From contig DATMBC010000080.1 of assembly GCA_035559435.1 (NCBI GenBank), forward strand, positions 603 to 64,602: a DNA stretch of 64,000 nucleotides, given 5' to 3'. How positions within the stretch are numbered: the first letter of the stretch is position 1; every line of letters starts with the position of its first letter. The stretch is from a bacterium. Lineage in GTDB: Bacteria > Zixibacteria > MSB-5A5 > WJJR01. A model generated the notes under the pieces. That model was not told the DNA's origin. It ran no database searches and was given only the letters and a program-made list of their open reading frames with translations. Positions 33,227 through 38,556 of this stretch are shown piece after piece. The translations under genes were made by a program, and so were the position numbers.

Positions 33227-33276
33227 AAGTACGCCCAGGAGGATTTGAACCCCCAACCTTCTGATCCGTAGTCAGA
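33227..33276 (-). repeat. Partial tRNA-Arg copy (distal att-like repeat)
   Basis: 50 nt identical to 38480-38529, which is the 3' 47 nt of the tRNA plus 3 nt. Confidence 0.85.
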
Positions 33277-33611
33277 AGGTTGAGTTTTCAATATGGCCGT
33301 TGTGACACAACGAGTTACAGCGACAGATCCCGATTAAATTGTTCAAGTCAGAAGGTCTTCCATGACGACCCTCGCTGAGTGACCCTCCTCCTTACGGGCC
33401 GTGTGATATGGCCCAAGTACATTCAATTGGCTAGCACGAGGACGGTCAATCGAAAAACCTCAGTTGTATCTGAGGTCGGGTTTTTGTCACAACCTCGTCC
33501 GGCTGAGGATTCAGGCGCCCTTTAGAGTTGAATTCGCCACAGAGAAGCACTTTTGTAACTATGAATACCTTGTCCCTGCGGCTGTCCAACCTCTTCGAGG
33601 AGTCAATTGCC

Positions 33612-36479
33612 ATGGGCTTCAACCAGAGACCTCGTGTATTCGCCGGGTCGTTAATCCTCGCGTTGTCGATTCTGTCAGCATCGCCTTTAAGCAGCAAAGC
33701 CGACGAGCTAGAAAGAACGGCGAGCAGAGGTTGTTTCGTTGAATCTTCCACACCCTCCTCTTGTTATTGTGTGGAAAACCAATTTGCCGTTGGAACGTAT
33801 GACGCAGCGATCGGATATCTGCTCTTCCCAATATCCTCATTGATCCCTCAAGGATCGACAATCAACAGCGCGACACTCTCGCTTTGGTGTACCATCGATC
33901 AGAATGCTGGTACCCTAATGGTTGGAAGATGTGAAAATGACCCGTGGGACGAGGGCACTTCTTGCCCTACTTGGAATGATCGTCCCGGTTTCGAGCTTCC
34001 ACCTCAACCGTCGACGGTCGAGATCAACGGAAACAACAAGTGGTACTACATCGACGTTACCGCCATTGCCGAGCAGTGGTTTACGTACGGGGTGTCTCAC
34101 AGAGGCTTCTACCTGGAAATGAGTTCCGGTCATGCCTTGTTCGCTTCTGATGATTACACCGTCGATCCGGCAAAGTACCCCAAAATAACAATCAACTACA
34201 CCTTGGGCCCCTGCCCCGCTGGAGGGAGAGTAACCGACGCGTTGGGCAATGGCGTCCACAATGTCAACATGCATTTCACGCGCATAAGTGGTTCTGGAAC
34301 GACTCCGACAGACGTTTCATCAGACGTTCAAGGTTATTGGTCGCAAAGCGATTTCAAAAGTACCGCCACCTACCGTGTAACCCCAAGTAAATCAGAGTGC
34401 GGGGCTTGGACATTCAGTCCAACAAGTAGGGATTTTGATTGCGAAAGTGGCGATAGGATGAGTCTGGATTTCGTGGCGACGCCGCCAACAGTCGGCATTC
34501 CGACTGGTGTCACTGCCATTCCGGGGCCGGAGATGGGAGAAATCACTCTAAGCTGGAATCATGTCTGCGGAGCCCTGACATACGTCATCAGGTATGACGA
34601 TGATCTGATTGACCCATGGGATCCGTTGCCGGACGGCAATCCCGGCTCGGGAGAAGACATAGGTTACGTTAACTCAGTCATAATATCTGGGCTTGGTCAA
34701 GGAAAGCAGTACCGGCTCGTCGTTGCAGCGGCCAACACTCAGGGCTTGGGTGCGTATTCACCCCAAGTAATTCAGAACCCTCGTGCACCAGTCATCGTCG
34801 GCCTTCATCCGCCATTTGCCGGAGCAACTTATTCAAACGACGTTACTGAATTCGAGCACATCGGAGATGCGTCCGTAGGAGCTGTTCCGTCCGACCTTGA
34901 TCCAACTTCAGGTGGGATACATCAACGCAGTGGCATCGTCCTGATGGGAGTGGCTGGTACGGTCTTCCAATCGAAAGATGCCGTTTCATTCGATATCGTC
35001 GTGCCCAATTCAGGCGAGTACAAAATCACAATACGTGGGCATGTTTCGGGAGGCATTCTTGCAGCAGGACACGAGATGGTCTACTTGCCCCTTATTGGGC
35101 TTGTGGGTATCTACGACATAAAGCATGCGGTGTGGATTATCGGCACGGTTGAGAATGGAGGAACAGACGTCTTCGAAGTTTGGAATACTCTTCCCGAGGG
35201 ACTAACGAGCGGAATTCGCGAACTCAGTGCTGCAGGTGCAGAGGCATTGTTTAATGTCTACTGCACGGGCGTAACCGGCGGTGTTTGCGGGGTCGCAGAT
35301 TTGGTGCTTACAGTGAACGAAATATACGATGTTTGGCAGACTGTCACCGACTTTGCTACCGCACTTGCTGGTTTCGACGAGGACGTGACACTTGAAGTTG
35401 TCGCAGACTTGGAAGGAGGGGTTCCAAGTAGCCTTGAACTTTACTCGCTCTGCGTCGCGGCCGGTGGTGTCAGCGGTGCGTATGCTGCTAGCTTCACTGA
35501 CGTGACTTTCATTGCCGATAGCGTTATTGTCGAGCAACAAACTGGGAGCATCGGGCCAGTAATGTCTGTATCTCCTTCCGGCCAAGCGTTGCTCCCGGCT
35601 ACAACGGTCGGGACAGTTACTGACTACCCCAGCGTGTTCACGATATCTAACTTAGGTGATCAAGCCCTGATCGGGCAAGTCTCAATCAGTACTGGGCCCT
35701 TTGCCTTGACATCACCTTTGAATTACAACATCCCTCCCGGCGGTTCTGCCGTCGTTGACGTCAAATTTTCGCCTGGCAAGGACACTACTTACACCGCCAC
35801 GGTTCAATTCAGCGGGGGACAAGGGGCGAATCGCACACTTCGCTGCACGGCGATTGACCCGGCGCCCTCGATCGCCATCTATCCTGACTCGGCGCGTTTT
35901 GACTCTGTCGATGTCGGACAGCAGATCACGTTTTCCGCGTTTTCAGTTACCAACACCGGGGGGGGAACTCTCGTTGGAACGGTTTCTGTCGCTCCGCCGT
36001 TTAGCGTTTCAGGAGACGGTTCTTATTCACTCACCCACGGTCAAACGAAGGTTATTGACCTGACTTTCTCTCCTTCTATGGAAGGTATGTTTGTCTCGAC
36101 CGTGAGTTTTACCGGCGCCGACGGAGCATCGCGTGTTGCCCAAGGTTATGCCGAGGACAACACTTCAGATGTTCGTGAGGTTGGTGCTGGGCAGGTCCCA
36201 AGGGAGTATTCACTTTCGCAGAATTACCCAAATCCATTCAACGCCGGAACTCAGATTCAATTCTCTCACCCAGCCGATGAGCATGTTACCCTTATGATCT
36301 ACGACGTCCTCGGACGAGAAGTCGCCAGATTGGCTGATCTGCACTTAAGTGCCGGCGTGTGGAGCGTGAACTGGGATGGCACTGACGCCAACGATCAGAT
36401 TTTGGGCTCAGGAGTTTACTTTTATCGGATCATCGCCGGTCGTTATGAGCAAACCAGAAAGATGGTCATTCTGAAGTGA
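33612..36479 (+). CDS. Secreted multidomain surface protein with a T9SS-type C-terminal sorting domain
   Basis: Signal peptide, a DNRLRE-like module (CENDPWDEGTSCPTWNDRP), FN3, two Ig-like repeats, and a C-terminal NYPNPFNAGTQIQF...GVYFYRI sorting domain. Lower GC than the backbone. Confidence 0.8.
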   Translation: MGFNQRPRVFAGSLILALSILSASPLSSKADELERTASRGCFVESSTPSSCYCVENQFAVGTYDAAIGYLLFPISSLIPQGSTINSATLSLWCTIDQNAGTLMVGRCENDPWDEGTSCPTWNDRPGFELPPQPSTVEINGNNKWYYIDVTAIAEQWFTYGVSHRGFYLEMSSGHALFASDDYTVDPAKYPKITINYTLGPCPAGGRVTDALGNGVHNVNMHFTRISGSGTTPTDVSSDVQGYWSQSDFKSTATYRVTPSKSECGAWTFSPTSRDFDCESGDRMSLDFVATPPTVGIPTGVTAIPGPEMGEITLSWNHVCGALTYVIRYDDDLIDPWDPLPDGNPGSGEDIGYVNSVIISGLGQGKQYRLVVAAANTQGLGAYSPQVIQNPRAPVIVGLHPPFAGATYSNDVTEFEHIGDASVGAVPSDLDPTSGGIHQRSGIVLMGVAGTVFQSKDAVSFDIVVPNSGEYKITIRGHVSGGILAAGHEMVYLPLIGLVGIYDIKHAVWIIGTVENGGTDVFEVWNTLPEGLTSGIRELSAAGAEALFNVYCTGVTGGVCGVADLVLTVNEIYDVWQTVTDFATALAGFDEDVTLEVVADLEGGVPSSLELYSLCVAAGGVSGAYAASFTDVTFIADSVIVEQQTGSIGPVMSVSPSGQALLPATTVGTVTDYPSVFTISNLGDQALIGQVSISTGPFALTSPLNYNIPPGGSAVVDVKFSPGKDTTYTATVQFSGGQGANRTLRCTAIDPAPSIAIYPDSARFDSVDVGQQITFSAFSVTNTGGGTLVGTVSVAPPFSVSGDGSYSLTHGQTKVIDLTFSPSMEGMFVSTVSFTGADGASRVAQGYAEDNTSDVREVGAGQVPREYSLSQNYPNPFNAGTQIQFSHPADEHVTLMIYDVLGREVARLADLHLSAGVWSVNWDGTDANDQILGSGVYFYRIIAGRYEQTRKMVILK

Positions 36480-36526
36480 CTCTCCCAATAGTTGAGCAAG
36501 TCAATAAACTGCAGTCCACAAGAACC

Positions 36527-36554
36527 AAGCGGCAGGCGAGGATCCGCCTGCCGC
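36527..36554. terminator. Convergent-gene hairpin
   Basis: AGCGGCAGGCG aggatc CGCCTGCCGCT, with no clear T-run. Confidence 0.35.
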
Positions 36555-38234: not shown

Positions 38235-38237
38235 GGT

Positions 38238-38387
38238 CACTGGAAATAGCCCAGCCGCTCGCCGTAGACCGAGATCGTCTTCGGCGTAAGGTTCTTGGTG
38301 CGGACGTGGTACTCGAACTGCTTCAGTGCAGTCTGCATACGTCTATCATCGACTGCACCGATCAGTGCCTTGAAGTGACAATCCATG
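38238..38387 (-). pseudogene. Tyrosine recombinase, N-terminal remnant (49 codons)
   Basis: My own translation: MDCHFKALIGAVDDRRMQTALKQFEYHVRTKNLTPKTISVYGERLGYFQ*. This is the SAM-like N-domain pattern. The stop is supplied by the IS end. Confidence 0.45.
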
Positions 38388-38482
38388 AGTCAGACGCTCT
38401 TTTCTGGCATCTGACGCCGAAATCCTGCACCACTTCGGGCGGCGTAACTGATTGTAGGGGATAATGTTACCTACGGTTCAAG

Positions 38483-38556
38483 TACGCCCAGGAGGATTTG
38501 AACCCCCAACCTTCTGATCCGTAGTCAGACGCTCTATCCAATTGAGCTATGGGCGC
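38483..38556 (-). tRNA. tRNA-Arg (anticodon ACG)
   Basis: Cloverleaf folded by hand: acceptor GCGCCCA, D arm GCTC/GAGC, anticodon arm TCTGA-CTACGGA-TCAGA, T arm GGGGG-TTCAAAT-CCTCC. CCA is not encoded. Confidence 0.9.

Follow-up and report, generated by a model that had tools for sequence, protein, structure and literature searches.

A relic island at a tRNA-Arg(ACG) gene in a Zixibacteria contig, the probable remnant of a small integrative mobilizable element with a T9SS-sorted cargo protein

Genomic islands that insert into tRNA genes (tDNA islands) most commonly belong to the class whose attP is centred on the anticodon, class 'A' of Williams 2002, which accounts for 2083 of the 3919 islands in Islander (PMC4383910). 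Integrative mobilizable elements (IMEs) with a relaxase of the MobC/Replic_Relax class (PF13814; PMC5357655) and a coupling protein of their own have been reviewed separately (PMC5357655, PMC5704250). Here we describe a 5,253-bp islet beside a tRNA-Arg(ACG) gene in a 64,000-nt stretch of a bacterial contig of Zixibacteria lineage (DATMBC010000080.1, assembly GCA_035559435.1; "the window" below is this whole stretch). The islet is a genuine but ordinary tRNA-integrated island relic that leaves the current understanding of genomic islands unchanged, and it is very probably what decay has left of a small integrative mobilizable (or conjugative) element. As in anticodon-centred tDNA islands, the tRNA gene is regenerated by element DNA, the far end is marked by the displaced 3' fragment in direct orientation, the integrase gene stands beside the tRNA, the block of identity starts in the 5' arm of the anticodon stem and stops shortly beyond the 3' end of the tRNA, and symmetric half-sites surround the 7-nt anticodon loop. 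It differs from them in that the integrase in the window has been reduced to 48 codons, so that a search requiring PF00589, as for Islander, would miss the island; in that the integrases of its family are short, Xer-like, two-domain proteins without an arm-binding domain; and in that its arms carry extra half-sites of core type, predicted to be bound by the integrase, and not distinct arm-type sites.

Table 1. Coordinates of the islet, its attachment sites and its immediate flank (positions in the window)
Feature	Position	Strand	Basis
Native chromosomal flank 3' of the tRNA (attB side)	33039..33226	.	86% nt identity to L002 10808-10949
Distal repeat copy (attR core), displaced 3' fragment of tRNA-Arg	33227..33276	-	exact match to 38480-38529
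attP-type symmetric core, CAACCTTCTGA / TCCGTAG / TCAGAAGGTTG	33254..33282	.	anticodon-stem palindrome plus 6 bp of element DNA
P arm, distal to the integrase	33277..33400	-	about 100 nt align with L042 5760-5862
Cargo gene, 955-aa secreted multidomain protein	33612..36479	+	Pfam and NCBIfam domain matches
Terminator-like hairpin between the convergent cargo gene and X relic	36528..36555	-	12-bp stem, z -3.9
X relic, last ~45 codons and stop of conserved element gene X	36574..36708	-	tblastx E 1e-17 to L039 2798-2932
IS#1, left end and first 65 orfA codons (36797-36991), cut off by IS#2	36710..36992	+	PF01527 46.8 bits
IS#2, full-length IS3-family element with imperfect terminal inverted repeats	36993..38239	+	NF033516 241 bits, rve/rve_3
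Integrase stub, first 48 codons of a Xer-like tyrosine integrase	38240..38386	-	tblastn with five intact integrases
P' arm, integrase-proximal	38387..38479	-	38244-38558 70-73% identical in DNA to L038-L042
Proximal repeat copy (attL core), element-supplied 3' part of the tRNA	38480..38529	-	exact 50-mer match
Intact tRNA-Arg(ACG), integration target	38482..38556	-	ARAGORN, Rfam; identical in L002 and L003

The islet is bounded by an exact 50-bp direct repeat (Table 1), whose copies lie on the same strand, are identical at 50/50 positions and stand 5,253 bp apart; the 50-mer occurs twice in the window, where the chance expectation is 0. ARAGORN and Rfam (67.8 bits) both call an intact minus-strand tRNA-Arg(ACG) at 38482/3-38556, and the proximal copy of the repeat consists of the 3' 47-48 nt of this tRNA followed by 2-3 nt of trailer. 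Both the repeat and the intact tRNA had been reported in an initial annotation made from the sequence, and both are found as described: the island lies between an intact tRNA gene and a displaced, directly oriented piece of it. Together with adjacent element DNA (33230-33300, minus strand), the displaced fragment scores 34.6 bits against the Rfam tRNA model, passing the gathering score of 29, and could thus be mis-annotated as a second tRNA-Arg gene; ARAGORN calls no tRNA gene in that interval. A partial mimic of the acceptor stem (ACGGCCA) beside the distal repeat, which raises the Rfam score, was judged coincidental and is not conserved at the equivalent junction of a related metagenome contig (L042).

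Relatives with an unoccupied site were found by scanning species-representative genomes with the neighbouring carbonic anhydrase, and two of them are informative. L002, a metagenome-assembled genome (MAG) labelled Ignavibacteria, is 89-90% identical in DNA to the window across the right flank, and it carries one tRNA-Arg and a single 50-mer, with 143 nt that match window positions 33084-33226 immediately after it; the alignment over 33084-33276, single 50-mer copy included, is 86% identical. As aligned, the window equals L002 plus exactly 5,253 bp, so L002 holds a true empty site. In L003, a Zixibacteria-labelled MAG, the order is carbonic anhydrase, tRNA-Arg and then UDG, the last 63% identical in protein to the UDG of the window (30786-31466), which would represent the ancestral gene order without the islet. 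An empty tRNA-Arg site in sister genomes was what the initial annotation had advised looking for, and its presence in L002 means that the islet is not a segment common to all relatives: since the tRNA there leads directly into the left flank, the insertion is evolutionarily real.

The composition of the islet is likewise unlike that of its host. Its part outside the insertion sequences (IS; 33277-36709) has a G+C content (GC) of 52.4%, against a mean of 62.9% for host windows of 3.4 kb (sd 1.7, minimum 57.8), and its tetranucleotide distance is 0.040, the host maximum being 0.023. Third-position GC (GC3) of the cargo gene is 0.53, compared with 0.74-0.85 for neighbouring host genes. For the part outside the IS, windowed GC and tetranucleotide profiles thus agree with the lower G+C noticed earlier for the islet, while the IS part is host-like at 59-62% GC (IS#2 61.6%, with a GC3 of 0.77 in its orfB).

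Beside the tRNA stands a 49-codon open reading frame (ORF; 38386-38240) that had been proposed to be the start of a tyrosine recombinase. It runs precisely up to the terminal inverted repeat of IS#2, where codon 49 and the stop have been created. The 49-aa stub has no match in Pfam, NCBIfam, PHROGs or PDB, and a word-indexed protein search returned only the stub itself; its relatives came from an exhaustive phmmer search and then from a profile-guided metagenome scan. With phmmer, N-termini 53-69% identical to the stub were found, and the longer of these proteins (P0014, P0016) carry Phage_int_SAM domains. The stub covers about the first 30 residues of the SAM-like domain and gives no direct match to a hidden Markov model, and it is 69-77% identical to proteins that score above cut-off with Phage_int_SAM_1 and Phage_int_SAM_5 over their longer sequence. 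The metagenome scan recovered five intact integrase genes of 308-309 aa (L038-L042, JGI metagenome contigs), and tblastn with all five matches the window at residues 1-48 only, with 71-77% identity and E 1e-20, which bears out the proposed identity of the stub. The same searches find the PF00589 catalytic domain, which would bear the R-K-H-R-H/W-Y residues, absent from the window, and no second integrase of the family lies within its 64 kb. Codons 1-48 are all that stands where a functional integrase would be expected beside the tRNA, and on that account the island is to be regarded, from its gene content, as a relic.

The intact integrases score 119-133 bits with PF00589 and contain the motifs ...HLIRHS...LLGHTT...YVH, and their best PDB matches are 4a8e and 1a0p. 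With the Xer recombinases (XerD/XerC/XerA; PDB 1a0p, 4a8e, 5hxy) they share end-to-end alignment to XerD and XerC (196 and 188 bits) and a two-domain layout; they differ in scoring far under the equivalog cut-offs (330-335 bits) and in that their genes belong to mobile elements inserted at tRNAs and not to a chromosomal locus for dif resolution. Relatives of the integrase in viral contigs are distant, at most 41% identical and with a different att layout.

Decay appears to be the rule among elements of this integrase family. Its members in the protein collection number seven, including the stub of the window, and all are truncated or frameshifted, with lengths of 49-217 aa and varied break positions; the five metagenome contigs are the only source of intact genes. 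The relic proteins of L031, L032, L035, L036 and L037 (P0014-P0016, P0018, P0019) are encoded just downstream of a tRNA or partial tRNA: tRNA-Arg(ACG) in L032 and L036, tRNA-Thr(CGT) in L031, and partial tRNAs in L035 and L037. Four of the five intact genes lie about 90 nt downstream of tRNA-Arg(ACG); the relatives with enough upstream DNA have the integrase at this distance from a tRNA, in most cases tRNA-Arg(ACG), with the exceptions of L042 (partial tRNA), L035 (partial tRNA with a longer spacer) and L037. The seven short database proteins suggested at one point a stand-alone SAM-domain protein, a candidate we rejected on three grounds: the break points differ, L036 reads on into a catalytic domain with a frameshift, and there are intact genes of 308 aa.

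The second coding relic of the islet proved not to be what had been supposed. The initial annotation took 36574-36715 for roughly the last 47 codons of the same recombinase, so that the islet would be an integrase-plus-cargo unit that has kept both termini of its integrase and lost only the catalytic core, to two IS elements. The N-terminal stub of that arrangement is real, and the H..LR...LG(Q) spacing of the C-terminal fragment looks by eye superficially like recombinase box II. The intact integrases, however, do not match 36574-36726 even at E<=100; recombinase models run on the fragment, as had been recommended, give nothing recombinase-like in Pfam, NCBIfam, PHROGs or PDB; and tblastn against phage genomes returns a chance match at E=9. 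The fragment instead shows 51-71% protein identity (51-64% in the protein alignment) to the C-terminus of a conserved element gene, which we call X, with the common ending ...KLGQD...SKG.LEIW*, and tblastx matches extend beyond L039 (Table 1) to L040, L041, L042 and L036. Gene X is separate from the integrase gene in L039-L042, and its position and opposite strand in these intact elements argue against its being part of a split recombinase. We therefore regard a core-only loss from the integrase as extremely improbable, and the fragment as the C-terminus of X, which encodes 169-264 aa in the relatives and belongs to no Pfam or NCBIfam family.

The relatives also indicate what the islet has lost. 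The gene order in L039-L042 is tRNA>, int>, <X, <Replic_Relax (PF13814), <VirD4/TraG-type coupling protein, with variable genes between int and X in L041 and L042; the relaxase and coupling protein are identified in L039, L041 and L042, the L042 protein being of the TraG-D_C/T4SS-DNA_transf kind. These three elements resemble IMEs of the MobC type in that a tyrosine integrase goes together with a PF13814 relaxase and a coupling protein of VirD4/TraG type in a compact module, with variable cargo. They depart from that class in their conserved gene X, which has no described family, and in their hosts, apparently uncultured bacteria bearing the type IX secretion system (T9SS) and of Fibrobacteres-Chlorobi-Bacteroidetes (FCB) type, not streptococci. 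The window itself, unlike MobC-type IMEs, holds no relaxase or coupling protein: tblastx against the relatives finds only the stub, the X relic and the sorting domain described below, and no relaxase, coupling-protein or mating-pore gene in the islet. Because intact relatives carry the module of X, relaxase and coupling protein, the ancestor is best understood as having been mobilizable or conjugative as well as integrative, and so as more than an integrase with cargo. In the earlier reading as a tRNA-integrating islet, the integration, the empty site and the foreign T9SS cargo stand, while the identity of the second fragment had to be changed and the lost mobilization module added.

Two IS3-family elements had been placed where the recombinase core should be, and for one of them the assignment to the family holds. 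IS#2 is a full-length IS3-family element with terminal inverted repeats, an orfB at 37383-38234, an A6G slippery site at 37350-37356, flanking CTGG at 36989-36992 and 38240-38243, and about 65% nucleotide identity to annotated IS3 transposase genes. A complete IS3-family element at 31913-33038 (orfA 31984-32262, orfB to 33020, inverted repeats TATACTGCTCCCC/TGTACTGCTCCCC) lies outside the islet, between the native tRNA flank and UDG, and is flanked by a 4-bp GGCT duplication. Both share with the family a helix-turn-helix (HTH) orfA, an rve-domain orfB, terminal inverted repeats and 4-bp flanking repeats. IS#2 differs from typical members in its imperfect left end and in an additional frameshift near 37215-37230, in the HTH-domain gene and upstream of the A6G site, that splits orfA and could have disabled the element or be an indel of the assembly. 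Of IS#1 there is just a 5' stump, with an approximate left boundary at 36710-36735. Its orfA is 49% identical in amino acids to that of the element at 31913-33038, and its best NCBIfam match is an IS66-type TnpA, below cut-off; judged from the orfA stump alone, its family (IS3-like or IS66 TnpA-like) is not fully settled. We take a 16/17 match between IS#1 orfA (36841-36857) and the tRNA to be fortuitous.

Both relics break off at an IS, the stub at the terminal inverted repeat of IS#2 and that of X at IS#1, which supports IS-associated loss. Of the proposal that IS activity destroyed the integrase, what stands is that a stub is all that is left and that the breakpoints abut IS elements; that both integrase ends were kept does not. 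Another event may have killed the integrase, however, and the order of events may differ, since IS#2 has CTGG on both sides, although its left neighbour is the truncated IS and its right neighbour the integrase stub. The CTGG pair may reflect chance (about 1 in 256), a common target preference of recombined IS copies, or insertion into an existing deletion junction.

The attachment sites are better preserved than the genes between them. At the distal copy of the repeat, the 5-bp symmetry of the anticodon stem is extended to the perfect 11-bp palindrome noted previously, or to 17/20 positions when further extended, and as a single strand this copy folds at -12 kcal/mol (z -5.2), the tRNA copy at -4.6 (z -1.2). 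The extension is a conserved feature of the attP-type core in this family, with an equivalent in L042 (5816-6001, Ga0315293_10000258), where an intact integrase gene follows an element-type arm and no more of tRNA-Arg than its 3' 47 nt, and where the attP-like junction has a 9-bp palindrome with the same extension (ACCTTCTGA/TCAGAAGGT). That junction may be either the attP of an unintegrated or circular element or a junction inside a tandem array. A search of viral contigs gave no exact copy of the attP-type 25-mer.

Both arms of the islet repeat parts of the core. In the P arm the core half-site recurs as an accessory copy, (A)GACCTTCTGA (33348-33359); the 10-mer AGACCTTCTG has a second copy in this arm and in L042 at the same distance of about 77 nt from the core; and ACCTTCTGA occurs four times in the 64 kb, always at att sites, where 0.25 occurrences are expected. 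The P' arm has, immediately next to the integrase ATG, the 13-mer AGAGCGTCTGACT (38388-38400), which duplicates the tRNA-side half of the attB core; this half lies mostly outside the 50-bp repeat and overlaps it by only its last 7 nt. The 13-mer occurs in the window just twice, in the P' arm and in the tRNA (0.06 expected). A motif in this position, GGAAAAGAGCGTCTGACT, is present in 11/11 members of the integrase family as a 13-20-nt copy of the 5' anticodon-stem/D-stem segment of the target tRNA, and it tracks that target: it reads GAGCGTCTGACT in tRNA-Arg elements and GAGCATCTGATT in the tRNA-Thr element (L031 1870-1884), the tRNA-Thr itself having GAGCAACTGATT. Because integrases of this family lack an arm-binding domain, the half-sites in the arms are predicted to serve as accessory binding sites of core type. 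The motif at the ATG might act in synapsis, as an operator or as an RNA leader; tentatively, we suggest that as an operator or leader it could tie integrase expression or synapsis to the state of integration and that, with the P-arm half-site, core-type sites might here replace arm-type ones.

These features suggest how the islet could have arisen. A 308-aa Xer-like integrase would have recombined an attP core centred on a copy of the tRNA-Arg(ACG) anticodon loop (..ACCTTCTGA / CTACGGA / TCAGAAGGT..) with the attB core of the chromosomal tRNA gene (GAGCGTCTGA / CTACGGA / TCAGAAGGTT), probably crossing over within the anticodon loop, the element supplying a replacement for the 3' 47-48 nt so that the tRNA stayed intact and the displaced original 3' fragment came to mark the far end. 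The ancestor would have resembled the intact relatives, with integrase, X, MobC-type relaxase, VirD4/TraG-type coupling protein and variable cargo near X; events ending at IS3-type elements would then have deleted the relaxase and coupling-protein genes, all of X but its last ~45 codons, and integrase codons 49-308, so that a single intact cargo gene was left between two att sites and their arms. With this gene content the islet should be unable to excise or transfer on its own. It might instead be a non-autonomous mini-element, a cargo cassette excised and reintegrated in trans by a related integrase, as the identity of the two 50-bp cores, the intact P-arm half-site and P'-arm motif, and the tandem or attP-like arrangements at the same tRNA in L042 and L032 could suggest. 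We find this unlikely, as the window holds no second integrase that could act in trans, there is no evidence of a circular form, and transfer would need more than excision now that no relaxase gene is left. That the cargo is fixed in place, as the initial annotation inferred, is accordingly probable at most: both att sites and both arms are intact, and a related integrase supplied in trans might still excise the islet.

Several observations weigh against this reconstruction. The islet sequences are held by one sample only, SRR7882662, whose short-read unitigs break 30 nt into each copy of the repeat, so that the placement of the islet, and with it the linkage to this host, depends on the assembly having passed the 50-bp repeat twice. 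The 5.26-kb segment could accordingly be an assembly chimera, derived from a lower-GC organism of the same metagenome and threaded through the 50-bp tRNA sequence: the islet forms its own unitig, the unitig that flanks it likewise ends within the repeat, distinct taxa have the same tRNA sequence, and the islet has 52% GC to the host's 63%. Foreign composition is, however, expected of a real island; the host-like GC and GC3 of IS#2, unlike those of the cargo, suggest residence in a high-GC genome; and an intact tRNA at attL with a displaced fragment at attR, in the correct polarity, is the structure left by genuine integration. A chimera thus seems very unlikely to us. The strand of the X relic poses a separate difficulty for the loss of genes from an integrated element: it is the same as that of the integrase stub and opposite to the orientation of X relative to the integrase in the four intact relatives L039-L042, so that a simple deletion from an L039-like ancestor appears insufficient, and an inversion, or an ancestral module that was inverted or differently ordered, has to be assumed beyond the IS insertion. 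CTGG on both sides of IS#2 would also fit a simple insertion into a pre-existing junction. No relative was recovered with its distal end in the DNA covered, so that the comparison stops short of the full size of intact elements, and such a cargo may or may not normally belong to them. Finally, there is no T9SS machinery or other sorting-domain protein within the 64-kb window, although the hosts of three relatives (L032, L038, L041) encode sorting-domain proteins on the chromosomal side.

The intact gene of the islet encodes a protein with a DNRLRE/CBM96 domain at the N-terminal end (66 bits), an fn3 domain, two HYDIN/VesB-type (choice-of-anchor-D-like) Ig domains and, as had been recognized from the sequence, a T9SS type-A sorting domain at the C-terminus, which scores above cut-off with both TIGR04183 (40.9 bits, cut-off 23; residues 872-953) and PF18962 (28.4 bits, cut-off 27). 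It is this C-terminal type-A domain that places the protein among T9SS cargo. Its N-terminus, MGFNQRPRVFAGSLILALSILSASPLSS, looks by eye like a Sec signal peptide. No full-length homologue was found among 5.8e9 proteins, where matches were limited to the sorting domain (35-48% identity), and a PDB sequence search with the protein gave no match. From these domains, the product is probably Sec-exported, T9SS-sorted and displayed at the surface, with a glycan-binding or adhesive role.

As a separate observation on sorting domains in this integrase family, an ORF at L032 6913-7566 (P0015), also present in L033 and L034, fuses the first ~77 integrase residues in frame to a T9SS C-terminal sorting domain. 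At this chimeric-ORF locus, two complete and identical tRNA-Arg(ACG) genes stand 1,746 bp apart and flank a BNR-repeat gene.

The islet, sharply bounded and matched by an empty site in a relative, is a case in which an uncultured FCB-type bacterium apparently gained a T9SS-sorted surface protein horizontally. Integration followed by loss of the integration and transfer genes at IS-associated breakpoints may be a way for genes of this kind to settle permanently in the chromosome. The relatives point to a small, undescribed family of tRNA-Arg-specific elements with a Xer-like integrase, gene X, a MobC-type relaxase and a coupling protein, a family visible in protein databases only as truncated relics.

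Some minor differences and features lie outside the islet. L002 has what appears to be a different IS end (TGACCTTCCCCC) at a contig edge, about 50 bp nearer the tRNA than the IS that lies outside the islet in the window. Between the Fer4 and S9 peptidase genes, the 0.2 kb of the window (40528-40745) corresponds in L002 (7517-8760) to about 1.2 kb of unalignable sequence, another small indel between the two. The window also contains a transfer-messenger RNA (tmRNA) gene at 61795-62155 on the minus strand (Rfam 163 bits), with the tag peptide AYDNSYALAA.

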